Assembly (NCBI GenBank): GCA_965208575.1
Contig: CBDBOV010000003.1
Coordinates: 736,001-800,000 of the forward strand
Source of the DNA: Spirochaetia bacterium
Lineage (GTDB): Bacteria > Spirochaetota > Spirochaetia > SZUA-6 > Bin103
Length of the DNA stretch: 64,000 nt
Direction of reading: 5' to 3'
Shown here: positions 9,469 through 45,564 of the stretch, piece by piece
How the letters are laid out: the number at the start of each line of letters is the position of its first letter
Position numbering within the stretch: the stretch's first letter is position 1
Program-made: the position numbers and the translations under genes
Notes under the pieces: generated by a model
Databases searched by the model: none
What the model was told of the DNA's origin: nothing
What the model saw: the letters and a program-made list of their open reading frames with translations, nothing else

Positions 9469-10257
9469 CTACACCGTGGGGGCGGCGCCGCCGTCGACGT
9501 TGATGGCGGAGCCGGTGACGAAGGCGGCGCGGGCGGAGGCCAGGAACGCGATCACGTCGCCGGCTTCCTCGGCGGGCGCGATGCGACCGAGCGGGATGCG
9601 CTTGCCGCCGTCCTGGTAGAACTGCTCCAGCGTGTAGGAGGGGTCGTCCGCGTGCGCGCTCTGCCAGCGGCGGTCGTTCTGCCGGCTCCTGATGTTGTTT
9701 ACGCACACCGTGTTCACCCGGATGCCGGCGCCGGCGTACTCGTTGGCGAGCGCCTTGGTGAGGGCGATGCCGGCCGCGCGCGACAGCGAGGTGGGCACCG
9801 ATCCACCGGGCGCCGCCTTGCCGGCCGGCGTGGTGATGTTGATCACTACGCCGCCGCGCTCCTTGAGTGCCGGCAGCACGGCCCGGGTGCAGTGCACGGC
9901 GCCGTACAGCTTGAGCTGCAGGTCTTCGCCGAGCAGGTGGTCGTCCATCACCTCGAACGAGTAGGCGTTGCCGGTGCCGGCGTTGTTGACCAGTATGTCG
10001 ATGCGCCCGAAGTGACCGCGCACGCGCTCCGCCATCGCGGCGATCTGCTCCATGTCGCCGACGTCCGCGGCCACCGGCAGCACGTCCGCGCCGGTCGCGG
10101 CCGAGATCTCGCGTGCCGCGGTGTCCAGGTCCGCCTGGTTGCGGGCCACGATCGCCACCCGGGCGCCCTCGCGCGCAAACCGCTCCGCCGCCGCGCGTCC
10201 GATTCCGAAACTGCCACCGGTCACGATGGCAACCATGTTTTGCAAACCAAGGTCCAT
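9469..10257 (-). CDS. SDR family oxidoreductase
   Basis: TGGSFGIG, NNAG, 'GIRVNTV' and 'VTGSAINVDGG'. The catalytic YxxxK is replaced by TSLSR. Confidence 0.9.
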   Translation of the reverse strand: MDLGLQNMVAIVTGGSFGIGRAAAERFAREGARVAIVARNQADLDTAAREISAATGADVLPVAADVGDMEQIAAMAERVRGHFGRIDILVNNAGTGNAYSFEVMDDHLLGEDLQLKLYGAVHCTRAVLPALKERGGVVINITTPAGKAAPGGSVPTSLSRAAGIALTKALANEYAGAGIRVNTVCVNNIRSRQNDRRWQSAHADDPSYTLEQFYQDGGKRIPLGRIAPAEEAGDVIAFLASARAAFVTGSAINVDGGAAPTV

Positions 10258-10281
10258 ACTGCATCATAGCCGCTATCAGCC

Positions 10282-11076
10282 ATGCAGGAATCAAGTCTCC
10301 CGACCATTCGGGAACCACGCCCGCTTACCACCGATGAGTTCCGCTTCTTCCGCTACAATGGCTTCCTCAAGCTGCCGTGGCGGTTGCCCGCCGAATTGGT
10401 GGAGGCGATCAGGAGGCAGGCCGCGAACGACATCGAGCAGGCGGTGGAGCCGCTGGTCCGCGACTACCGCGGCGACGTGATGCGCCTGTCGGCCATCTGG
10501 GAGCGCGGCGGTGCGATCCGGCGCGCACTCGGCGGCCCGGAAGTGGTGCCGGCGCTGCAGTCGCTGCTCGGCCCCGACGTGGAGTACACGCTCAATCGTC
10601 ACAATCACCTCACCCTGCGGCGCCAGGACGACCGCACGGCGATGTCGATCGAGTTGCACCGCGACGTGGGAAACTGGTCGCGCACCATCTGTACGATCCT
10701 GTTCTACCTGGAGGACACCAACCTCGAGAACGGCTGCACGCAGGTCATTCCCGGCAGCCACCTGCTGCCCGATTTCGCACCGGGGCTGAGGGCGGAGAAC
10801 GACCCATGGTGGATTGCCTCCGGCCTGCTGGAGCAGCGCATCTCGATTCCGATGCCGGCCGGCGGCCTGCTGGCAATCGACAGCATGCTCGCGCACGCCG
10901 CCGGACGCAACCGCACCGACGGCACCCGCATGACGCTGACCGCCGGCTACCACGTGGTGGACCACCACGCCGGCGCGTGGGATCCCAAGCGCGTGGTGGT
11001 GTGCGGCGAACGCACATACCACGGCAACGACGTGCGCCGCCGGCGGCGCGCCGAGCCGGAGCGCGCGGCACCGTGA
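10282..11076 (+). CDS. Phytanoyl-CoA dioxygenase (PhyH) family Fe/2OG oxygenase
   Basis: 'FFRYNGFL', HxD 'LHRD', 'NGCTQVIPGSH' and 'HAAGRN...R'. Confidence 0.88.
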   Translation: MQESSLPTIREPRPLTTDEFRFFRYNGFLKLPWRLPAELVEAIRRQAANDIEQAVEPLVRDYRGDVMRLSAIWERGGAIRRALGGPEVVPALQSLLGPDVEYTLNRHNHLTLRRQDDRTAMSIELHRDVGNWSRTICTILFYLEDTNLENGCTQVIPGSHLLPDFAPGLRAENDPWWIASGLLEQRISIPMPAGGLLAIDSMLAHAAGRNRTDGTRMTLTAGYHVVDHHAGAWDPKRVVVCGERTYHGNDVRRRRRAEPERAAP

Positions 11077-11130
11077 GCCATCGGCACCGGCAGCCCGTGG
11101 CGAACGCCGGCTGCATGCGAGCTGCGCTGC

Positions 11131-11883
11131 TCAGGGGGCGTGCCTCGACCCGGCCTCCTTCCTGGCGCGGTGCATCTCGGCGATCAGTTCGTCGGTGGGC
11201 GGATAGTACGTGCCGGGCACGACCCGTTCGGCGCGGATCTTTTCCTTGACGTAGTTCTCGGCGTCCTCGTGCTCCAGCGCCCACTCCAGGGCGGCCTCGG
11301 CCATCCACGACGGCACCACCAGCACGCCGTCGTTGTCGCCCACCATCACGTCGCCGGGGCGCACCAGGGCGCCGCCGCACTGGATCTGGATATTCACCTC
11401 GGCGGGGGTCGCGTCCACGCCGCCGTGAAAGCTGCGGTGCTTGGCGTAGATGGTGAGCCCGTAGTCTTCTTCGGTCATCACGTCCAGGTCGCGGATGGCG
11501 CCGTCGATCACCGCGCCGTCGGCGTTGTTCATGGCCAGTTGCAGCAGCTTGACGTCGCCGGCGAGCACGTCGCGGCTGGAGCCCATGATGTCGGCCACCA
11601 GCACGTCGCCGGGGCCGCACTTGCCCATCGCGACGTACTCGGGATCGTCGACGCCGCCCGGCTTCTCGGCCATCAGGTCGGCGCGCCGCGGCAGGAAGCG
11701 CAGCGTCACCGCGCGGGCGGCGAACCGCTGCTTGCCGGGCGTCAGGTTGCGCAGCCCCTCGCACACGTTCAGCGGGCACCCGAAGTTGCACACGGCGCCG
11801 TACACGGTGGCGCCGGGGATCGACTTCAGGCCGTCGAGGACATCCTGCGGCACGTGTCTCGGTTTCATGTCGAATGTCGGCAT
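11131..11883 (-). CDS. RraA / HMG-aldolase-like family protein
   Basis: 'RAVTLRFLP', 'GDVLVAD', 'VIDGAIRD' and 'CGGALVRPGDVMVGDNDGVLVVP'. Confidence 0.88.
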   Translation of the reverse strand: MPTFDMKPRHVPQDVLDGLKSIPGATVYGAVCNFGCPLNVCEGLRNLTPGKQRFAARAVTLRFLPRRADLMAEKPGGVDDPEYVAMGKCGPGDVLVADIMGSSRDVLAGDVKLLQLAMNNADGAVIDGAIRDLDVMTEEDYGLTIYAKHRSFHGGVDATPAEVNIQIQCGGALVRPGDVMVGDNDGVLVVPSWMAEAALEWALEHEDAENYVKEKIRAERVVPGTYYPPTDELIAEMHRARKEAGSRHAP

Positions 11884-22274: not shown

Positions 22275-23063
22275 TCAGCCGGAGGCCGCGCGCCGCCTGG
22301 GCGTGTACGCCAGCAACAGGCCGATCTGGCGGTAGCCGACCAGCGGGTACAGCTTGGCGCCGGTGTGGCTGGATGTCAGCACCGCCATGCTGGCGCCGTG
22401 CGCACGGTCGTCGCGCAGCATGCGGCACAGCATGGCGCGGGCGATGCCGCGGCGCCGGAATTGTTCCACCACGAACAGGTTCTGGCACCAAGTGGCGCCG
22501 CTCACGGTGATGCTGCCCACCCAGCCCACCACCGTGTCGTCGATGAACGCCGCGTACTGGCGCTGCCGGGCGCCCGGATGCAGGTCTTCGGGGCGGATCT
22601 GCCGGTTGCGGGTGGCCCGGTGCAGGTGCTCGGCCATCTCCGCCGTCAGTACGCGCTCGATCACGGCCGGGGCAGGCACGCGCGGTATGCGCCGCAGCGG
22701 GTGCGCCATCAGCGGCTCGGTGGTGTTGAGCCGGTAGTCGAGCGCCTTGAAGCCGTCGCGCAACGGCTGGTCCGAGGTACCGGCAGGATGGATGGCACAG
22801 ATCACGTAGCGGCCGCGGGTCCCGGCGCGCGCGGCGGCGTCCACCGCGGCCGCGGGCAGGTTGCAGCTCACCCACTCCTCGCTGCGATAGTTGCCGCGGC
22901 GCCGCGGGGCGTCGCGCAGTACCCACAGCGGCGGCGCCGACGGGAAGCCGGGCACGCCGACCTTCGTTGCTTCGTAGGGGTGGGTGCGGCTGCGGACGTA
23001 GGAGAATCCGCGCGCGAACACCTCCATGGCTCGTTCCAGTTCCGCGGCGGCGGATGCCGGCAT
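22275..23063 (-). CDS. GNAT family N-acetyltransferase
   Basis: 'LFVVEQFRRRGIARAM' and 'LYPLVGY'. Confidence 0.85.
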   Translation of the reverse strand: MPASAAAELERAMEVFARGFSYVRSRTHPYEATKVGVPGFPSAPPLWVLRDAPRRRGNYRSEEWVSCNLPAAAVDAAARAGTRGRYVICAIHPAGTSDQPLRDGFKALDYRLNTTEPLMAHPLRRIPRVPAPAVIERVLTAEMAEHLHRATRNRQIRPEDLHPGARQRQYAAFIDDTVVGWVGSITVSGATWCQNLFVVEQFRRRGIARAMLCRMLRDDRAHGASMAVLTSSHTGAKLYPLVGYRQIGLLLAYTPRRRAASG

Positions 23064-23067
23064 GCAG

Positions 23068-24429
23068 TTACTTCCCGTTCCGCCCGACGATTTGCATGGG
23101 CATGCCGTTGTGCGGCCTCAGCCCCACCCACGGCGCCGGCCGCGGCGGCTCGCCGGCGGTCAACTCGAGCCGATAGTCTTGCGAGATGCGGGCGATGGCC
23201 AGGATAGACTCGGTGGTGGCGAAGCCCTGCCCGATACAGGTGCGCGGACCGGCGCTGAACGGCAGGTAGCTGTACCGCCGCGGGTCCGGGCCGTCGAGCC
23301 AACGCTGCGGCCGGAACCGCTCCGCCTCGGCAAAGAACCTTTCGTCGCGGTGTGTCACCCACGGACAGATCAGGATCACCGTGCCGGGCGCCACGGGGTA
23401 GCCATTGAGGGTGAACTCCTCGTATGCCATGCGCGGGATTATCGGCACCGGCGGATACAGGCGCAGCGCCTCCTTGAACACCGCGTCGCACCAGGTCAGC
23501 TCCGGCACGTCGTCCTTCGCCGGTGCGCGCCCGTTCAGGGTCGCGTCGACTTCACCGGTCAGCCGGTCCGCGATCGATGGGTGCTGGGCGAGCAGGTACC
23601 AGGTCCAGGTCAGCGCGACCGCCGTGGTCTCGTGGCCAGCGATCAGCAGCGCCATCATCTGGTAGTGCCACTCCGGATCGCTCAGCAGGCCGGGCTCGGC
23701 CGCGCCCGCACGGCGCAGCAGGTCGATCAGGTCGCCGGCGCCGTGATGCACCTCCGGATGGTCGCGGATCACCCGCTCGATCAGTGCCCGCCCCTCCTGA
23801 ACCGCCCTGCGCAGCTTGACGTTTTCCTTCGTCGGCACGATCGGCGGCGCCTGGAACGGATGGGTCGCGCGGTGGGTGATGTCGCGGACGATCGTCTCGC
23901 AGGTGTCCAGGATCGCGTCCCGCCGGTCGGGGTAGTCGGCGCCGTACAGCGAATTGAGCACGATGTCGAGCGACAGGCGGGCCATTTCGCGATGCACTTC
24001 GACCACTTCGCCCTGTTTCCAGGTCGATATGTGGCGCTCGGCCATGCGCACCATGGTGGGGCCGTAGCGCGCGAGGGCGCTGCCCTTGAGCAGCGGGTTG
24101 AACCGGTGCCGCTCGCGGACCCAGAAGTCCTCGTCGCCGGGAAAGTTGATCACCCGGTACACGTCCTCGCCGCCGGCCAGCAAGTGGTCGAGCCGGGTAG
24201 GGGGCTTCGACTTGCTGCGCGTGAACCGGCGCGCGTTGGTGGCGAGCACGCTCTCCAGCAGCGCCGGGTGGTTGATGAACAGCAGCTCCTGGCGGCCCGC
24301 GGTGAGCCGCACGATGTCGCCGTGCTCGCGGGCGGCCCGGGTCAGGAACCCGAGCGGATCGCGGCGAAAGTGCAGTGCATTGCCGACCAGCGGGACGCCG
24401 CGTGGTCCCGGTGGATCATGGTTGCTCAG
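23068..24429 (-). CDS. Cytochrome P450
   Basis: AGHETT, EALRLYPP, 'AERFRPQRW' and heme motif PFSAGPRTCIG. The reading frame extends upstream of the track start to PPGPRGVPLVGNAL, with a probable CTG start at 24429. Confidence 0.92.
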   Translation of the reverse strand: MSNHDPPGPRGVPLVGNALHFRRDPLGFLTRAAREHGDIVRLTAGRQELLFINHPALLESVLATNARRFTRSKSKPPTRLDHLLAGGEDVYRVINFPGDEDFWVRERHRFNPLLKGSALARYGPTMVRMAERHISTWKQGEVVEVHREMARLSLDIVLNSLYGADYPDRRDAILDTCETIVRDITHRATHPFQAPPIVPTKENVKLRRAVQEGRALIERVIRDHPEVHHGAGDLIDLLRRAGAAEPGLLSDPEWHYQMMALLIAGHETTAVALTWTWYLLAQHPSIADRLTGEVDATLNGRAPAKDDVPELTWCDAVFKEALRLYPPVPIIPRMAYEEFTLNGYPVAPGTVILICPWVTHRDERFFAEAERFRPQRWLDGPDPRRYSYLPFSAGPRTCIGQGFATTESILAIARISQDYRLELTAGEPPRPAPWVGLRPHNGMPMQIVGRNGK

Positions 24430-24624
24430 GGGAGCGCCTCCACGAGAGTTGGTGTGCTCAATGCTGGCCGCGCACGCGCCTGCCGGTCAACCGCCGTCTC
24501 GAACGAATCGGTTCCGGCTGGATCACAAGTGCAGCGAAGCCGCTGGGCGGAGGCGCTTCCTCCGGGATGGGGCGGCGGCGGGTCGTCGTTGTGCTACGCT
24601 CGGCGCATGGCAGGTGGGGTCCGC

Positions 24625-39133: not shown

Positions 39134-39925
39134 TCAGTGTGTCGCGGAGCGCCCGCCGCGCTGCAGCGGGTCCTGGCGGTAGAAGGCGGCGAGTTGCCGG
39201 TACACGCCGGGATATTGCCCGTGTAGCGCATCCGGCTGCTCGAAAAACAGCTCGCTGGTGACGGCGAAGAACTCGGCCGGGTTCTCGGCGGCGTACAGGT
39301 CGACCGCGCCCTCGCGGCCGGCGCGCTCGTCGGCGCAGATCCGCTCGTAGGCGCCGCCGAGCTCGCGGTGCCACGCCTCGGGGTCCATGTCGCGGTGCAG
39401 GGCGGGGCGGCCGTTCATGGCGCCGTCGAGCAGGTCCAGCTTGTGCGCCGCCTCGTGAATCACCACGTTGCAGCCGTGCCCCCAGCCCGACTCCTCCACG
39501 TCTTCCCAGGACAGTACGACCGGCCCCTCGTCCCACGCCTCGCCGGCCAACTCCTCCTCCCACTCGCGCACCACGCCGCTGTCGTCGGTCTCTTCCATCT
39601 CCGCGGCAAACGCCTGCGGCAACAGCACGACGGTGCGCCAGCCGCGGTACCACTCGAAGCCGAGCCCCAGGATCGGCAAACACGCTTGCGCCGCCACTAC
39701 CAGCCGGTACAGCGTCTCGTCCTCCTCCAGGCCGCGCACCTCGAACCGCTTGCGGCGCAGAAACCGCTCCACCAGCTCCTTCAGGCGGGCATCTTCGTCC
39801 GTGGTGAGGCGGGCCAGGATCGGGTGCTGCTCGCGCACCCAGCGCCACTGCTCCGCCGACACCGCCCCGCGCCGCGGGCGGCCGCGGCGCCATGGCCACG
39901 CGCGTCCGGTGCTGGTCTCCGCCAT
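39134..39925 (-). CDS. mtfA: Zinc-dependent peptidase M90 (MtfA family)
   Basis: 'GEAWDEGPVVLSW', 'NVVIHEAAHKLD' and 'YAAENPAEFFAVTSELFFE.P'. Confidence 0.88.
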   Translation of the reverse strand: MAETSTGRAWPWRRGRPRRGAVSAEQWRWVREQHPILARLTTDEDARLKELVERFLRRKRFEVRGLEEDETLYRLVVAAQACLPILGLGFEWYRGWRTVVLLPQAFAAEMEETDDSGVVREWEEELAGEAWDEGPVVLSWEDVEESGWGHGCNVVIHEAAHKLDLLDGAMNGRPALHRDMDPEAWHRELGGAYERICADERAGREGAVDLYAAENPAEFFAVTSELFFEQPDALHGQYPGVYRQLAAFYRQDPLQRGGRSATH

Positions 39926-40079: not shown

Positions 40080-41144
40080 TCACCGCGGCGCTACGCACGT
40101 CAGAGCCTCCACGCAGCACGCCGTGGTGAAGGCTTCGGAACCGAAGCCAAGGTTCGTGCCGGGCTGACCGAGCCAGGCGAGACACTCCGGCCAGCCGCCG
40201 TCGGCGCGCTGCGCCTCCAGCAGCCGGCCGACCGCCATCCGTACCACCTCCGCCCGAGCATCAGCGCACAGGCGGTGCAACGCCGTCACCGCCTGCGCGG
40301 TGCGCATGATGTCCCCAAACCCGCCGTCCGGCTGCCGGCAGGACAGGATCCGGGCTGCCAGCGCCGCCTGCTGCCGGGCGAACACCGGCGGAGCAAGGCG
40401 GCGCGCGCGGGCCAGCGCCACGTACAGATCGATGGGAAAGGGATAGTAGTGCAGGGAGAGATCTCGTTCGCCGCCGTCCGCGACCAGCGTCTCGAGCCAG
40501 TCTTGCGCCGCGCGCGTCTCCGGACGGTCGCCCAGGTACGCCACGACGTTGGCATTGACCACGGAGTCGACCGGATTCAGGGCGTGGCTCACTCGTTCCG
40601 GCCCGGCCATCCAGGTTCGGAACCGGCCCGCGCGGTCGCGGAACGACGCCAGGAGCGCGACGTTGCGTGCCAGCAGCAGCCAGAGGTGGGGACCGGCCGC
40701 CAGCGAGCAGATCGCGGTGTCGTCGAGGTCGGGCGGGAGCCGGGGCCAGTAGCGCCACACTCCGGGGTATCCGATACAGGCGTGCAGGAACGTCCGGGTG
40801 CGCCGGCGCAGCCGCTCGGCGACCGGGTCGTCACACCCCTGCAGCGCCAGCAACCCGAGTCCGGCGACGAACGGCGGATACTCGGCAGCACCCGGGCCAT
40901 CCATCGCGCGGTTCGCGTGACGCCGCATCGGCCAGGCACCGTGCGCCGTCACGGCGTCCCGGAGAAAGCGCAGGCCACGCGCAATCGCCCCGGCGACAGG
41001 CTCCCCCGGGCCGTCCCGCCGCGCTGTCCGCGGCGGCGCGGGCGGGTCTGCGCACGTCACCGTGCAACGCTCGTGGCCGCGCGGCGCAGCCCGCTCTCGC
41101 GGTCCGGCGGTGGAGTGCAGGCTGGTGCAGGTTGGTCTCGCCAA
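40080..41144 (-). CDS. Monodomain class II terpene cyclase-like protein (prenyltransferase/squalene-oxidase repeats, DxDD)
   Basis: 'PPDLDDTA' DxDDTA motif, 'VDSVVNANVVAYLG', and QW-like repeats 'RQPDGGFG' and 'AQRADGGW'. Start uncertain. Confidence 0.75.
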   Translation of the reverse strand: MARPTCTSLHSTAGPRERAAPRGHERCTVTCADPPAPPRTARRDGPGEPVAGAIARGLRFLRDAVTAHGAWPMRRHANRAMDGPGAAEYPPFVAGLGLLALQGCDDPVAERLRRRTRTFLHACIGYPGVWRYWPRLPPDLDDTAICSLAAGPHLWLLLARNVALLASFRDRAGRFRTWMAGPERVSHALNPVDSVVNANVVAYLGDRPETRAAQDWLETLVADGGERDLSLHYYPFPIDLYVALARARRLAPPVFARQQAALAARILSCRQPDGGFGDIMRTAQAVTALHRLCADARAEVVRMAVGRLLEAQRADGGWPECLAWLGQPGTNLGFGSEAFTTACCVEALTCVAPR

Positions 41145-41205: not shown

Positions 41206-42528
41206 TCAACTCCACTCGACGGTCAGGTGCCTCAGTCCCCGAAACGTGAACGCCCGAAGGATATCGGGAACGCCGCCGTCCGCCAACCGCATGTGGGGCA
41301 GGCGCCGGGTCAATTCCTCCAGGATGATCCTCATCGCGAGTCGGGAAAGCGGCGCACCGAGGCAGAAGTGCGGGCCATGTCCGAACGACAGATGTTCACG
41401 CGCATTGTCACGGTCGATGACCATCCGCTCGCCGTCCGCGAACACGGTCTCGTCGCGATTGCCGGAGGCGCGCAGCAGCATGATCCTCGCGCCGCGCGCG
41501 ATGCGCCGACCGCCCACCTCCGTGTCGCGGGTCACCAGGCGCGGAGACACCAGCACGGGCGCGCACAAGCGCAGGATCTCTTCGACCGCGTTGGGGATGA
41601 GCGCGCGATCGGCACACAGCCGCTGCCACGGTACGCGTTCGTCGAGCAGCCTCCGGATGCCGCCGGCAAGGGTGTGGCTCACGTTGTCCACGGCCGAACT
41701 CTGCAGCAGGAACGCGATGTTGTGGAGATAGTTGTCCGTAAACAGCGACGGGTCCGTGCACCGGGCGCGGATCGCCGCGCCGAGGTAGTCGTCGCCCGGC
41801 CGCTCGATGGCGCGCGCCACCAGCCTGCCGGAGGAGGCCCACAACCGGACGACGGCGTTCATCAGCGACACTTGCGCGTCTTCGGACCACGCGCCCCACG
41901 TTTCGAGCCGGCGCATCCCTCCCGGCCAGGAGGCGAGGTCGGCATCGTCGTCCGCACCGAGCAGGCGCACCATCATCAGGTACGCCGCCGGTCTCAGAAG
42001 CTCGGCGAGAAGGTCCGCGCGACCGTCATCGACGAAGCGGTCGATCCGGTGGGTGACGATCGCGCGGATTTCCGGCTCCAGCGGCGCGACGCGGCGGGCG
42101 GAAAGGCCGTCGCCGAACAAACGCCGGTGGCGGCGGTGGGTCGGCGGATCCTCGTCCACCAGCGCCGGCTCCAGCCGCATGCCGGACGAATCGTAGAGTT
42201 CCCGCGCCCGCGGGCACAGCGACCGCGCCGCTACGGGCTCGCGGACGATGGCCGACGAGAAGGTTGCCGGATCCGTGAACACCGCGCGGATGTCGCGGTA
42301 TCGGGCAACCGCCCACCAGCCGACTTCGGGAACGTGCAGCACCGGCTCCTCGGCCCTCGCCCACGCGAAGAATCGGTAGGGGTCGGCGAAGTAGCCGGTC
42401 AGCAGCGATTCGCGCACGTTCCCGGCATGCGCGGCGATCATCTGCTCGAACCGCGTCGTTGCCGGTGCCGTTCCCTGTTCCGGCGGCCGCTCCTGCCGCG
42501 GCTCAGGGCCGTGTTGCCGGCGGTGCAC
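41206..42528 (-). CDS. Cytochrome P450 (CYP116-like heme domain, no fused reductase), copy B
   Basis: EEILRL, SFGHGPHFCLG and 'LEELTRRLPHMRL...FRGLRHLTVEW'. The I-helix reads SSAVDN. Confidence 0.9.
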   Translation of the reverse strand: MHRRQHGPEPRQERPPEQGTAPATTRFEQMIAAHAGNVRESLLTGYFADPYRFFAWARAEEPVLHVPEVGWWAVARYRDIRAVFTDPATFSSAIVREPVAARSLCPRARELYDSSGMRLEPALVDEDPPTHRRHRRLFGDGLSARRVAPLEPEIRAIVTHRIDRFVDDGRADLLAELLRPAAYLMMVRLLGADDDADLASWPGGMRRLETWGAWSEDAQVSLMNAVVRLWASSGRLVARAIERPGDDYLGAAIRARCTDPSLFTDNYLHNIAFLLQSSAVDNVSHTLAGGIRRLLDERVPWQRLCADRALIPNAVEEILRLCAPVLVSPRLVTRDTEVGGRRIARGARIMLLRASGNRDETVFADGERMVIDRDNAREHLSFGHGPHFCLGAPLSRLAMRIILEELTRRLPHMRLADGGVPDILRAFTFRGLRHLTVEWS

Positions 42529-43832
42529 TACCGGTGGGCGGCCCCGCTACCGCCGCCGGTGCCGGTCCACTCGACCGTGAGGTGCTTCAGCCCGCGGAAC
42601 GTGAACGTCCGGAAGATGTCGGCACCGCCGCCGCCGCCGTCCGCCAGCCGCAAGCCCGGCAGGCGGCGGGTCAACTCCTCCAGGATGATCTTCATCTCCA
42701 GCCGGGCAAGCGGCGCCCCGAGGCAGAAATGCGGGCCGTGCCCGAACGAGAGGTGATCGCGGGCGTTTTCGCGGTCAATGGCCATCCGTTCGCCGTCCGG
42801 GAACACCTCTTCGTCGCGATTGCCCGACGCGAGCAGCAGCAGAATCCGCGCACCGGCGGGAATGGGTCGGCCGCCCACCTCGGTGGCGCGGGTCGCGAGG
42901 CGCGGGAACGCCAGCAGCGGCGTGCCGAAACGCAGGATCTCTTCGACCGCGTTGGGGATGAGCCCCGGGTCGGCGCACAGCCGACGCCACGGCGTCCGGT
43001 CGTCGAGCATGGTCCTGATGCCGTGGGCAAGCGCATGGCTCTGGTTGTCGGCGCCGGCGGTCTGCAGCAGGAACGCGACGTTGTGGAGGTAGTTGTCCGT
43101 GAACAGCGACGGCTGTGCGCGCCGGGCGCGCACCGCGTCGCCGAGGTAGTTGTCGCCGGGATGCTCGATCGCGTTTCTCACCAGCCAGCCGCTGACGCAC
43201 CACAAGCGGGCGACCATGTGCATGTGGGAGATCTGCGCGGCCTCCGTCGGCGTTCCCCAGGTTTCCACGCGGGGCATCCCGCCCGGCCAGTCGGACAGGT
43301 CGAAGTGGTCGTCTTCCCCGCCGAGCAGGTGGAACGTCATCCGGCTCGCCGCGGGCTGCAGGAGCCGGGAGAGCAGGTCCGCGCGCCGGTCATCGGCGAA
43401 GCGGTCGATCTGGCTGGTGACGATGGCGCGGATCTTCGGCTCGAGCCGCGCCACGCGGCGTGCGGAGAGGCCCTCGCCGAACAAGCGGCGGTGGCGTCGG
43501 TGGGTCGCCGGCTCCTCGTCGGCGAGCGTCGGCTCCAGCCGCACGCCGGCCGACGCATGGATCTCGCTCGCCCGCGGGCACAGCGGGGTGATCGGCTGGC
43601 GGACAATGGATGACGAGAAGGTGACCGGATCCCTGAACACCGAGCGGATGTCGCGGTAACGGGCAACCGCCCACCAGCCGACTTCCGGAAGGTGCAGCAC
43701 CGGCGCCTCGGCCCTGGCCCAGGCGAAGAACCGGAACGGGTCGCCAAAGTAGCCGGCCAGCGGCGAATCGCGCTCCTGCGTGCCATGGGCCGCGATCAAC
43801 TCCTCGAACCTCGTTACGCCGCGTACTGTCAC
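42528..43832 (-). CDS. Cytochrome P450 (CYP116-like heme domain, no fused reductase), copy A
   Basis: EEILRF and SFGHGPHFCLGAPLARLE. The I-helix reads TAGADN. Clear paralogue of copy B, with a TAG/GTG overlap. Confidence 0.9.
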   Translation of the reverse strand: MTVRGVTRFEELIAAHGTQERDSPLAGYFGDPFRFFAWARAEAPVLHLPEVGWWAVARYRDIRSVFRDPVTFSSSIVRQPITPLCPRASEIHASAGVRLEPTLADEEPATHRRHRRLFGEGLSARRVARLEPKIRAIVTSQIDRFADDRRADLLSRLLQPAASRMTFHLLGGEDDHFDLSDWPGGMPRVETWGTPTEAAQISHMHMVARLWCVSGWLVRNAIEHPGDNYLGDAVRARRAQPSLFTDNYLHNVAFLLQTAGADNQSHALAHGIRTMLDDRTPWRRLCADPGLIPNAVEEILRFGTPLLAFPRLATRATEVGGRPIPAGARILLLLASGNRDEEVFPDGERMAIDRENARDHLSFGHGPHFCLGAPLARLEMKIILEELTRRLPGLRLADGGGGGADIFRTFTFRGLKHLTVEWTGTGGGSGAAHR

Positions 43833-43857
43833 CGCGTTCCCCCCGTAAGCGTTCGAC

Positions 43858-43885
43858 GCGCAGCGTTGCGCCGGCAACGCTGCGC
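43858..43885. other. Perfect 12-bp stem hairpin in the RiPP maturase operon
   Basis: GCGCAGCGTTGC-gccg-GCAACGCTGCGC. Confidence 0.7.
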
Positions 43886-43917: not shown

Positions 43918-45033
43918 CTACCCGCGCCGCGCGTGGCCGGCGGCGGGAGTCTGTCTGCCGTACCACGAGCTGAGTGTCTCGAACGTGCGGTAACCGGCGG
44001 CCGGGTACGCCTTGGCTTCCAGCGCGGCGCCGGCGCCCCCGTCGTCCGCATCGAACGAAACCTTGACGTGATGGAGGCCGGTGAACACCCCGAACGTGTC
44101 CCGCCCGCGGAACACGAGTTCCCGTCCGGGCCAGACGGCCAGCGCGTCCAACTTCTCCGGCAGACACAGTCCCGCTGCGCACAGCCGGGCGAGGAAGGGG
44201 CGCCAGCCGGCGACACCGGCGTGCTGCAGCCTGCCCGGCTCGCCCTGGAACAGTTCGAGTCCGACGCGGGGTACGACGCCGGCCGCGGTTACGCCGACCG
44301 CCAGCCGGAGCGAGCGAAACGACCCCTCGAACGCGGCCAGGAAGGCGGCGACTTTGCCGCCCGGTCCCCGCCACCGCAGCCCTTCCAGCAGCGGCAGCGC
44401 ACACGCCGGTTCCAGGGTGCGGCTGACGACCTTGAACGCTCGACCCGCGCGCCCCGGCATGATCCCGATGCAATCGACCATGCCGCCGGCCGCCGCCAGC
44501 CCGTCGAACGTCCGCTCCAGCGCTCCTCGCTCCGCGCCGGTCAAGCGCCAGCCGGCGGCGCCCGCGATCCACGCTCCCACGGTCTGCGCCGCCGGAAACC
44601 CGGCAGCGCCCTGGGCCGCCAGGTCGGATCGAATCCGTACGAACCGCCCATGGGGGCCACCCGGAGAGCCGGACGTGAGGTCGAACTCGATGCCCATGTC
44701 GTCGGCCCACGGTGCGCTCTCCTCGATCGCGGCCAGATGGTCGCCGAACCCGGCGGCGGGGGACCCCGCCGCCGCCCGCTCGCCTTGCCGCACGTAGTGC
44801 TCGGCGAGCCGACTCCCGCGCCGCACTGCCATGTAGAGGTCGGTTCCGGCCGCCGGGTCGCCGAGCCGCAGCTCGAAACCGAAGCCGGTGCCCGGGTCGA
44901 CCGGCAGTCCGCGGACCGCCTCGCGCAGGCGGAGCCAGCCGGCGCCGTCGATCAGCACCGGGGAAATCGCCCGCGAGAGGGCGTCGAGGACTGCGCCGAA
45001 CGCGGAGGCGGCATCGGCCGCCGGCAGGACCAT
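43918..45033 (-). CDS. Unannotated RiPP-cluster protein, putative ABBA-type aromatic prenyltransferase (paralogue 1)
   Basis: Shares FGFE.RL, EF/YD, PR.GLEL, CLP.K, GLHHVK and AK.Y motifs with 45565..46554. The function is inferred from context and motif pattern. Confidence 0.55.
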   Translation of the reverse strand: MVLPAADAASAFGAVLDALSRAISPVLIDGAGWLRLREAVRGLPVDPGTGFGFELRLGDPAAGTDLYMAVRRGSRLAEHYVRQGERAAAGSPAAGFGDHLAAIEESAPWADDMGIEFDLTSGSPGGPHGRFVRIRSDLAAQGAAGFPAAQTVGAWIAGAAGWRLTGAERGALERTFDGLAAAGGMVDCIGIMPGRAGRAFKVVSRTLEPACALPLLEGLRWRGPGGKVAAFLAAFEGSFRSLRLAVGVTAAGVVPRVGLELFQGEPGRLQHAGVAGWRPFLARLCAAGLCLPEKLDALAVWPGRELVFRGRDTFGVFTGLHHVKVSFDADDGGAGAALEAKAYPAAGYRTFETLSSWYGRQTPAAGHARRG

Positions 45034-45131: not shown

Positions 45132-45159
45132 TTTACAACAGTACACAATATGTTATGGT
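45132..45159 (+). promoter_or_regulatory. Candidate sigma70 promoter for the precursor operon
   Basis: AT-rich island reading TTTACA-16 bp-(TGt)TATGGT, overlapped by an ATGGT-n6-ACCAT inverted repeat. Confidence 0.5.
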
Positions 45160-45244
45160 ATTTTGACCATGTTGTTCGAGATCCGAGGTTTCCGTGCGAC
45201 GCCATCGCGGGGAATCAATCATGTCGACAACGAAGGAGACTTCG

Positions 45245-45517
45245 ATGAGTACGATCGAAACGACCAGCGGCGCGATGACCGCAACCGAGCTGCGCGATCA
45301 ACTGTTCGCGAGGGCAGCCGATGACGACGAGTTCCGCTCGCGGCTCCTGGCGGATCCGAGTGCCCTCCTGCGCGACGACTACGGCATCGTCCTGCCGGAG
45401 AACCTGAAGCTCCACGTCCACGAGGAAGACGCGACGACCGCTCACCTGGTGCTGCCGCGCTCCCAAAAGCTCACCGAAGAGGAACTCGCGTCCACCTCCG
45501 GTTCGTCGTATTACTGA
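45245..45517 (+). CDS. NHLP (nitrile hydratase-like leader) RiPP precursor, 90 aa, core (S)SYY
   Basis: SD AAGGAG. 'RAADDDEFRSRLLADP...GIVLPENLKLHVHEED...HLVLP...LTEEELASTSG|SSYY' is an NHLP leader with an ELxxxSG(G/S) cleavage motif. Confidence 0.9.
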   Translation: MSTIETTSGAMTATELRDQLFARAADDDEFRSRLLADPSALLRDDYGIVLPENLKLHVHEEDATTAHLVLPRSQKLTEEELASTSGSSYY

Positions 45518-45564
45518 TCGCGTCGCTGGGACGCGGTGGCGCCGGATTCGCCGCTGTCCTGCGC

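Follow-up and report, generated by a model that had tools for sequence, protein, structure and literature searches.

The stretch of DNA analysed here (the window; 64,000 nucleotides, positions 736,001 to 800,000 of contig CBDBOV010000003.1 of a Spirochaetia bacterium) carries, at 45245-45517 on the plus strand, a gene for a precursor peptide of the NHLP leader family whose predicted core is the tripeptide Ser-Tyr-Tyr. The product is almost certainly a real NHLP precursor with a conserved Tyr-Tyr (YY) end. Around it lie genes for two ABBA-fold prenyltransferase-like proteins, two cytochromes P450, a class II terpene cyclase, and an NHLP-type exporter with a C39 peptidase. The best overall explanation of the cluster, in which we place moderate confidence, is that the leader would present Tyr-Tyr for prenylation, terpene cyclization, and P450 chemistry, and that the C39 exporter would release a terpenoid di- or tripeptide.

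An NHLP precursor ending in Tyr-Tyr

The precursor gene consists of 90 codons, starting with ATG at 45245, and a TGA stop codon (45515-45517). Its translation is MSTIETTSGAMTATELRDQLFARAADDDEFRSRLLADPSALLRDDYGIVLPENLKLHVHEEDATTAHLVLPRSQKLTEEELASTSGSSYY, and the C-terminus preceding the stop reads LTEEELASTSGSSYY, also given as KLTEEELASTSGSSYY. A Shine-Dalgarno sequence, AAGGAG, is located at 45232-45237, 7 nucleotides 5' of the ATG. Farther upstream on the plus strand is a promoter-like site, TTTACA-16-TATGGT (45132-45159), a consensus match only, found once as against 0.1 expected in shuffled sequences. The GC content by codon position is gene-like (about 0.80, 0.34, and 0.85 at the first, second, and third positions) in a genome of about 70% GC. 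The sequencing runs listed for this DNA are four, from one study, with no RNA run among them, which counts neither for nor against expression. The NCBIfam model TIGR03793 (leader_NHLP) matches the precursor with 57.6 bits at a cut-off of 50.9, aligning residues 13-86 with model positions 2-76 of 77, and Pfam NHase_alpha is also above its cut-off (28.8 versus 27.2). Together with the ends of the homologues described below, the TIGR03793 match bears out the first-pass annotation, in which this open reading frame (ORF) had been read as an NHLP precursor with a minimal core. Pfam PF27793 is precomputed on several of the homologues, so that part of the leader may already have a family in a more recent release of Pfam.

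Double-glycine leaders carry conserved residues at positions -12, -8, and -7 before the cut. In the leader register of the precursor, these positions are occupied by L76, E80, and L81, the two leucines forming an L-x4-L pattern, and G86-S87 is the predicted C39 cleavage motif. The leader thus delimited spans residues 1-87 (45245-45505, plus strand). Two cores had been offered at first, SYY and SSYY. Because the TIGR03793 alignment puts G86-S87 on the Gly-Gly position, the first is retained and the second is not: the predicted core, read from the leader register and the tails of the homologues, is S88-Y89-Y90 (45506-45514; 45506-45517 with the stop). A core of peptide length, as is usual for the NHLP family, is absent; the core of this precursor is 3 residues long, and that of 27 of the 42 homologues is 2. 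An alignment of 28 homologues has 19 invariant columns, G86 among them, and a mean column identity of 76%, and the G-[AGS] motif and the leucines at -7 and -12 stay in register across the aligned sequences.

The homologues come from a search of 5.8 billion proteins at lengths of 49-158 amino acids, in which 42 of 50 candidates reached E <= 0.001. These 42 proteins are 46-97% identical to the precursor; 37 have YY at the C-terminus, 3 have WY, and 2 have other ends. The YY tails are SGAYY (27 proteins), SGSSYY (4), SGSGYY (2), AGGGYY (2), AGADGPYY (1), and GGGGMYY (1), and the WY tails are AGAWY (twice) and SGAGWY (once). The remaining two are P0042, which ends in AAGVDVYPV, and P0043, a divergent 51-amino acid piece. 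In the YY and WY proteins the aromatic pair follows the G-[AGS] motif either directly or after 1-3 residues, and Phe is never one of the last two residues, which always bear a phenol or an indole. The pair is the sole conserved part beyond the cleavage motif, separated from it by a linker of 0-3 residues, and this upholds the earlier proposal that the leader is mostly a carrier presenting Tyr-Tyr. Judged by these tails, the cleaved core would be a bare YY dipeptide in most homologues and SYY here.

Among the genomic copies, the stop codon after YY is TGA in six loci (the window, L022, L021, L001, L003, and L004) and TAA in two (L002, with the tail AGAIYY, and L005, with AGGNLYY), and the DNA 3' of the stop differs from locus to locus. 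The leader profile finds matches in 11 of the 92 genomes of the window's taxonomic order, and the YY type occurs only in the window's own genome, G002, and G022. Five other genomes of the order have 7-14 ordinary NHLPs each; the eight of these that were read have (A/V)GG followed by cores of 8-35 residues. Because the ordinary NHLPs of related genomes are built in this way, the YY form is derived and selected.

Linkage and nature of the neighboring genes

The genome (6.5 Mb) has one copy of the precursor gene, two of the prenyltransferase-like family, and one of the cyclase family, all within this cluster. The common gene order is ABC2, ABC1, HlyD, prenyltransferase paralogue A, precursor / prenyltransferase paralogue B, P450, P450, cyclase, and it recurs in G022 (locus L021, from another genus of the family) and in G002 (locus L022, from the same genus). 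These three loci, together with the distant loci L001-L005 and L024, constitute the nine YY loci. The distant ones are from metagenome-assembled genomes (MAGs) labelled Alphaproteobacteria, Rhodospirillales, Acidobacteria, or simply 'bacterium', and keep the precursor, P450, both prenyltransferase paralogues, and the exporter with the following exceptions: L004 is without paralogue A, HlyD, ABC1, and half of ABC2; L003 is without most of HlyD, ABC1, and ABC2; and L005 ends at a contig edge just past the precursor. As a result, both paralogues are found in seven of the nine YY loci, L004 having one and L005 being cut by the contig end. In the window, L001, L002, L021, L022, and L024, the adjacent exporter has a C39 domain that looks intact.

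When species-representative genomes were scanned with the prenyltransferase alignment, 14 loci were obtained. Two of them are contigs of loci already named (L023 of L003 and L025 of L001), L024 is the further YY locus, and 11 are of non-YY type (L026-L036), from MAG records of Vicinamibacterales, Binatia, Spirochaetia, and Alphaproteobacteria. The non-YY loci have 1-5 NHLP precursor genes beside one prenyltransferase gene (two in L026) and an HlyD/ABC1/ABC2 exporter. The leader profile detects 28 NHLP ORFs in L026-L036 plus L024, 27 of them with complete ends: 19 have a C-terminal Trp behind a core of about 5-12 residues (as in AGG-HHNNPW and AGG-NYETW), one has YY (L024), and seven have other ends. 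L026-L036 look like a sizeable undescribed group of peptides made on the ribosome and modified after translation (RiPPs) with a C-terminal Trp, and the distribution of the prenyltransferase-like family, as read from these sequences, fits modification of the C-terminal aromatic residues of NHLP precursors. Two further loci depart from both types. In L006 the NHLP ends in GSHN, with neither a prenyltransferase nor a P450 gene within 10 kb. L007 (uncultured candidatus Porisulfidus sp., 10001-11650) has an NHLP ending in AAGLSCCV, one prenyltransferase gene, an exporter, and no P450; its Cys-Cys-Val end beside a prenyltransferase-like gene is reminiscent of CaaX-type S-prenylation.

The two prenyltransferase-like genes flank the precursor gene. 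Paralogue A (329 amino acids; 45565-46554, plus strand) is placed by its predicted fold, and paralogue B (371 amino acids; 43918-45033, minus strand) by homology to paralogue A. The two are about 30% identical, each matches the gene of the other in every related locus by tblastn, and paralogue B retains the invariant columns of the paralogue A family alignment. An AlphaFold2 model of paralogue A, built from 35 sequences, has a pLDDT of 90.4, a pTM of 0.90, and five helix-helix-strand-strand repeats. In a Foldseek search of the PDB with this model, the best 50 matches are all ABBA aromatic prenyltransferases. In the VIA comparison MpnD has a Z-score of 16.5 (290 of 329 residues, root-mean-square deviation (rmsd) 4.1) and CymD one of 16.1; all 50 rows listed belong to the ABBA superfamily, and the best fold matches are indole prenyltransferases of the DMATS type. 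The nearest named clusters in the ESM Atlas, Trp_DMAT and PTase_Orf2 at 0.88-0.90, provide a lead only. In the family alignment E38, D49, E102, D104, and R174 are invariant and R40, R177, R180, H295, K297, K318, and Y320 nearly so, the conserved residues lying mostly on predicted strands. By exhaustive HMMER searching, the family comprises 550 representative clusters (at 50% identity) at E <= 0.001; the stricter limits of 1e-10 and 1e-30 leave 171 and 30. By sequence, paralogues A and B show no membership in the recognized prenyltransferase families Trp_DMAT (PF11991), PTase_Orf2 (PF11468), or cyanobactin prenyltransferase. The modelled fold thus agrees with the first-pass annotation that two putative prenyltransferases accompany the precursor, and A and B are best described as ABBA-fold prenyltransferase-like proteins whose activity is suggested by that fold. 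A predicted complex of paralogue A with the precursor (score 0.17, mark 0.32) is used neither for nor against any reading.

The start of paralogue A, TTG at 45565, is uncertain. Relatives start this protein at GTG or ATG, 27 codons 5' of the equivalent of residue 1, and about eight conserved in-frame residues (GFAAVLRL) lie 5' of the TTG in the window. Either TTG 45565 or some non-canonical codon must serve as the start of paralogue A. In the window, the precursor stop and paralogue A are separated by a spacer (45517-45565) that is much shorter than that of relatives. It contains no intrinsic-terminator-like site, and the folding of 45505-45600 as a hairpin is no better than that of shuffled sequences (z -0.93). 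A frameshift joining the leader to the prenyltransferase was considered, as the prenyltransferase frame is open for 80 codons upstream. Long open frames are common at 70% GC; because of this, and because no slippery site is seen by eye, the open frame is not taken as a frameshift fusion.

The class II terpene cyclase, which went unmentioned in the first-pass annotation, is encoded by a 354-amino acid ORF at 40080-41144 (minus strand). Its folded part comprises residues 45-354 and bears DLDDTA at residues 139-144; the N-terminal 44 residues of the ORF are probably not translated. As a single sequence it scores 21.8 on Pfam PF13243 (squalene-hopene cyclase), below the cut-off of 26.1. When a profile of 37 homologues is compared with PDB sequences, squalene-hopene cyclase is matched at 1.8e-16 and drimenol synthase at 1.2e-10, and the PPDLDDTA stretch of the family falls in register with PDDLDTTS of drimenol synthase and DADSTA of 8paj. 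The 37-sequence alignment has D141 and C146 in every sequence and D139 in nearly all. The AlphaFold2 model has a pLDDT of 87.5 overall and about 95 over residues 45-354. It superimposes on the class II domain of the drimenol synthase AsDMS with a Z-score of 32.5 (rmsd 2.3, 288 residues) and on the monodomain cyclases 8paj, 6ij1, MstE, and 8pak with Z-scores of 27.5-28.4. Ranks 1-32 of the fold search are all class II cyclases; unrelated (alpha/alpha)6 glycosidases begin at rank 33, with Z-scores below 20. A grouping of paralogue B and the 40080-41144 protein in one family was rejected, since BLASTP shows no relation and the two belong to different families.

The cyclase occupies the same position in L021 and L022, and members of its family adjoin the prenyltransferase gene in L032 and L036. 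P0235 (732 amino acids) is a natural fusion of the two families, with an N-terminal cyclase part (hhalign 98.2%, residues 41-331) and a C-terminal prenyltransferase part (phmmer 3.3e-15, residues 361-704). Its acid motif reads HTDAT, in which the central Asp is retained and the flanking Asp residues are lost (the fragment P0151 is noted alongside). Eight of the 120 cyclase homologues listed (P0380-P0387, 432-434 amino acids) have an NHLP-like N-terminal domain fused to the cyclase; Pfam PF02979 is precomputed on six of these eight, and a T-G-[GAV] stretch stands between the domains in the five that were aligned. Through this NHLP-like domain the enzyme may bind the same partners, or the domain may even be an export or cleavage signal for the enzyme as a whole.

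Cytochrome P450 a (449 amino acids; 42528-43877, minus strand; Pfam PF00067) and cytochrome P450 b (440 amino acids; 41206-42528, minus strand; likewise matched by Pfam) are 69% identical and retain the heme-Cys motif (FGHGPHFCLGAPL in P450 a). Among solved structures, their sequences come nearest to 6ldl and 6gii (E 1.1e-79 for P450 a) and to P450 RhF 6ro8, entries that we take to be CYP116B enzymes. A P450 gene is present in all nine YY loci and in none of the 11 non-YY prenyltransferase loci (tblastn, E <= 1e-6 and at least 60 bits), a pattern that fits a P450 role tied to the adjacent aromatic pair. The shared gene order of the window, L021, and L022 includes two P450 genes, L001 and L024 also have two, and L002-L005 have one. 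With a single P450 in four of the nine YY loci, the earlier idea of one enzyme set per tyrosine is, as far as the P450s are concerned, not supported. A third full-length P450 (Pfam 3.4e-76) is encoded 17 kb away at 23068-24486 (minus strand), beside a GNAT acetyltransferase gene (22275-23117, minus strand); in none of the loci compared is this P450 linked to the cluster.

Three plus-strand genes downstream of paralogue A encode the export machinery, and TIGR03794, TIGR03796, and TIGR03797 are by far their best matches. The first encodes a short HlyD-type adaptor (265 amino acids; 46570-47367; TIGR03794 78.6 bits at a cut-off of 156.2, over the first 93 of 421 positions; Pfam HlyD_3). The second, ABC1, encodes an NHLP-type ABC exporter with an N-terminal C39 peptidase (47373-49607; TIGR03796 839.5 bits, cut-off 853.3; PF03412 3.9e-32), whose C39 domain has the expected Cys (ECGAAC) and His (FRHFVVLEG) stretches. 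The third, ABC2, encodes a second NHLP-type ABC subunit without a peptidase (49597-52581; TIGR03797 675.2 bits, cut-off 709.4, residues 309-993). About 300 residues precede the TIGR03797 match in ABC2 (49597-50520, plus strand); they have no Pfam match and are conserved in L001 and L002, aligning from residue 1. In L003 (11414-11821) residues 1-96 of HlyD run straight into the C-terminal 43 residues of ABC2, and in L004 (6445-8145) ABC2 residues 427-993 come immediately after the precursor. The two export deletions differ in their breakpoints, leave the modifying enzymes intact, and represent either real decay or an assembly artefact. At the other end of the cluster, a gene for an M90 (MtfA-like) metallopeptidase (39134-39925, minus strand) adjoins the cyclase gene. 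It does so in the congener locus L022 (core GYY) as well and is not adjacent in L021 (core bare YY). The enzyme might trim an extra N-terminal core residue, or its position might be mere within-genus synteny.

Proposed pathway and competing explanations

From the gene and its family, the conservation of Tyr-Tyr, the folds and motifs of the neighbors, and their co-occurrence, we infer the chemical steps, their order, and the product as follows. The 87-residue leader would act as a handle, docking the precursor and bringing its aromatic end to the cluster enzymes. Paralogues A and B would first alkylate the two Tyr rings with an isoprenyl diphosphate, one ring each. The match of two paralogues to two aromatic residues is suggestive, in a small sample; prenylation of the tyrosines, for which the modelled ABBA fold argues, we consider reasonably likely. 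The presence of the cyclase in the cluster argues for a chain of C10 or longer, and in place of a dipeptide that is merely prenylated it makes a cyclized terpenoid hybrid a possible product. In a second step, in this lineage, the class II cyclase, with DLDDTA as general acid, would protonate the distal double bond and cyclize the attached chain, a step modelled by analogy on MstE and on the cyclase domain of NctPC, which act on aryl- or indole-bound chains. A cyclized diphosphate is no longer an allylic donor; therefore, cyclization would have to follow prenyl transfer. Whether terpene cyclization takes place in this genome we rate as an even call. Third, the P450s would couple the adjacent Tyr rings, hydroxylate them, or oxidize the terpene: coupling is given slightly less than an even chance, hydroxylation a lower but still appreciable one, and oxidation of the terpene is somewhat unlikely. 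Finally, C39 would cut after G-S, and HlyD/ABC1/ABC2 would export a small di- or tripeptide decorated with terpenoid. The fullest form of this scheme, a ribosomal route to a small-molecule meroterpenoid of about 600-900 Da in which each Tyr carries a sesqui- or diterpene chain, cyclized by the class II enzyme resembling drimenol synthase and then oxidized or coupled by P450, is quite unlikely as a whole.

Several observations weigh against the proposed pathway. Neither Pfam nor NCBIfam assigns a credible family to paralogues A and B or to 25 further members (0 of 27), and comparison of the paralogues with PDB sequences gives zero matches, or only chance matches at E 0.4 or worse. Prenyl transfer is therefore assigned from the fold, because no family model and no solved-structure sequence is matched, and inactive ABBA-fold proteins such as PatF are known. 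The window has no ATG, GTG, or TTG where relatives start paralogue A, and no prenyl diphosphate synthase gene is found within the 64 kb. The cyclase is present in only three of the nine YY loci (the window, L021, and L022), and five of the distant group (L001-L005, L024) have an S-adenosylmethionine (SAM) methyltransferase in its place; with the cyclase limited in this way, cyclization lies outside the conserved core pathway. The P450s score 50.9 and 46.7 bits on the NCBIfam ApyO model NF050147, the cut-off of which is 525, and their sequences place them nearer to CYP116-type hydroxylases than to known RiPP cross-linkers. HlyD, ABC1, and ABC2 are all under the curated equivalog cut-offs, slightly or well. 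As L003 and L004 have truncated export genes and kept enzymes, removal of the leader by C39 in cis is not universal, unless these assemblies are faulty.

A different account of the same genes is that the defining chemistry is the work of the P450s, which join the two Tyr rings through a C-C or C-O bond much as in biarylitides or mycocyclosin, and that the ABBA proteins either bind the leader or core without catalysis or catalyze a reaction that is not prenyl transfer. The strict occurrence of P450s with the two-aromatic core (9 of 9 YY loci versus 0 of 11 of Trp or other type), the invariable phenol or indole in the last two residues, and the want of any sequence link between the prenyltransferase-like family and proven prenyltransferases all speak for it. 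We nevertheless consider it unlikely. The same ABBA family adjoins Trp-ended NHLPs in loci without any P450, its fusion or adjacency to class II cyclases (P0235, L032, L036) makes sense only with an attached isoprenoid chain, and the P450s are closest to the CYP116 type and not to ApyO. The i, i+2 spacing of aromatic residues in P450-cross-linked RiPPs is absent here, the aromatic residues being adjacent in 40 of 42 homologues.

It is very unlikely that the product is instead a lipidated small protein, in which function resides in an uncleaved NHLP-fold domain and the YY end, once prenylated, serves as a membrane anchor, as in CaaX prenylation. Such a protein would suit L003 and L004, which keep the precursor, P450, methyltransferase, and prenyltransferase genes and have lost most exporter/C39 genes, and it would suit the very strong conservation of the leader. 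However, leader conservation of this degree is equally expected if four or five enzymes recognize the leader, the cleavage motif and the leucines at -7 and -12 are kept in register, and six YY loci, the window among them, have an adjacent exporter with an apparently intact C39 domain. The last alternative, a degenerate precursor in which a longer core is cut off at the TGA at 45515 by a sequencing error or by a nonsense mutation of recent date, has a negligible chance and is counted as refuted, since 40 of 42 homologues stop at the same place in YY or WY, the close homologues have no long cores, and the genomic copies vary both in stop codon (TGA or TAA) and in the sequence that follows it.

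Relation to known systems and significance

RiPPs with polycyclic isoprenoid moieties, linked to the enzymes NctPC and ChrPC, were reportedly described by Hubrich et al. in Chem in 2024. An excerpt of PMC13290415 presents NctPC as an ABBA-fold prenyltransferase domain with an MstE-like cyclase domain, by which a geranylgeranyl group is placed on a Trp of a ribosomal peptide and then cyclized; it puts the similarity of the transferase domain to cyanobactin prenyltransferases as low. The NctPC and ChrPC peptides are macrocyclized lanthipeptides according to a part of PMC12715784, and the class is also treated in a portion of PMC13647313. As far as these excerpts go, the present cluster is like NctPC and ChrPC in joining a peptide prenyltransferase and a class II cyclase in a RiPP cluster, as separate genes in the window, L021, and L022; as with the fused enzymes of NctPC, the two families present here are also found fused (P0235) or adjacent (L032, L036). 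Unlike NctPC and ChrPC, for which these accounts give a Trp acceptor and fused enzymes, it has Tyr-Tyr in a 2-3 residue core, two separate prenyltransferases, a separate cyclase in this lineage, and one or two P450s. The NctPC and ChrPC proteins were compared by description. Family-model scans find no lanthionine synthetase (LanM, LanB, LanC) among the cluster ORFs. The cluster would thus appear to belong with the recently described RiPP-isoprenoid hybrids, differing in its Tyr-Tyr core, paired separate prenyltransferases, CYP116-like P450s, and lack of a lanthionine synthetase.

Another related system is PalX/PalQ of Paenibacillus alvei, in which, according to an excerpt of PMC10853753, an NHLP-type precursor is prenylated on a conserved C-terminal Trp and the NHLP domain boosts modification. 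The present precursor resembles PalX in being of NHLP type with a conserved C-terminal aromatic residue as (here, putative) acceptor (PMC10853753). The differences, within what that excerpt covers, are that PalQ is ComQ-like, with the fold of the isoprenyl diphosphate synthases of trans type (trans-IDS), that the acceptor is Trp in an 8-residue core, DNVRRFFW (PMC10853753), and that the PalX/PalQ cluster is described without a P450, a cyclase, or an ABC/C39 exporter (PMC10853753), all of which are present here.

Partial accounts of the biarylitides (5-amino acid precursors of MRYYH type with one P450) and of ApyO/aminopyruvatide (a YLY cross-link) provide a parallel for a minimal aromatic core with a dedicated P450. 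As so described, biarylitides have virtually no leader and an i to i+2 cross-link (Y-x-H, Y-x-Y), in contrast to the 87-residue leader and adjacent YY found here. The cyanobactin Tyr prenyltransferases PagF, LynF, and PirF, again from partial descriptions, share with the present proteins the ABBA fold and a Tyr in a ribosomal peptide as (predicted) acceptor, and LimF is among the fold matches; their substrates are macrocycles without a leader or short linear peptides, and they form a recognizable sequence family, whereas the present family is without a Pfam match. MstE (merosterolic acid; PDB 6sbb-6sbg) is like the window cyclase in consisting of a single (alpha/alpha)6 domain of about 350 amino acids (Z 27.5-27.9 over about 298 residues), and the polyprenyl chain that MstE takes is one already joined to an aromatic ring. 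The two proteins are 20% identical; the substrate of MstE is a free prenylated dihydroxybenzoate, and the window protein is nearest to the drimenol synthase domain.

In mycofactocin (C-terminal Val-Tyr), pyrroloquinoline quinone (PQQ), and pearlin biosynthesis, one or two C-terminal residues of a long ribosomal scaffold become a small molecule. The enzymes of these pathways (radical SAM, PEARL/LanB-like) do not appear in the scans of the cluster, and release here is predicted to occur via the bacteriocin-type C39 exporter. A scaffold of the pearlin type is ruled out, as the cluster has no LanB- or PEARL-like gene.

In the full-text literature searched, neither an NHLP precursor ending in YY nor this prenyltransferase-like family with NHLPs was found; part of this ground may be covered by Hubrich's 2024 paper and by a review from 2026 with the same first author. 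If the proposed pathway is true, the two-residue core carried on an NHLP leader would rank with the smallest known cores of leader-dependent RiPPs, and the system would be the first case in that literature in which Tyr of a ribosomal peptide is joined to class II terpene cyclization and P450 chemistry. Enzymes that use the leader as a handle would then be attractive for late-stage lipidation of peptide C-termini. The findings draw attention to an unannotated ABBA-fold family beside NHLPs that end in Trp, Tyr-Tyr, or Trp-Tyr, and they supply a genome-mining rule for peptide-terpenoid hybrids: an NHLP leader, a short core, and a C-terminal aromatic residue. Should the meroterpenoid interpretation hold, bacteria with clusters of this kind could supply aromatic-terpenoid hybrid metabolites in host-associated communities, and the ABBA family, with its 550 clusters, would mark a large hidden RiPP class in which a C-terminal aromatic residue is combined with a terpene.

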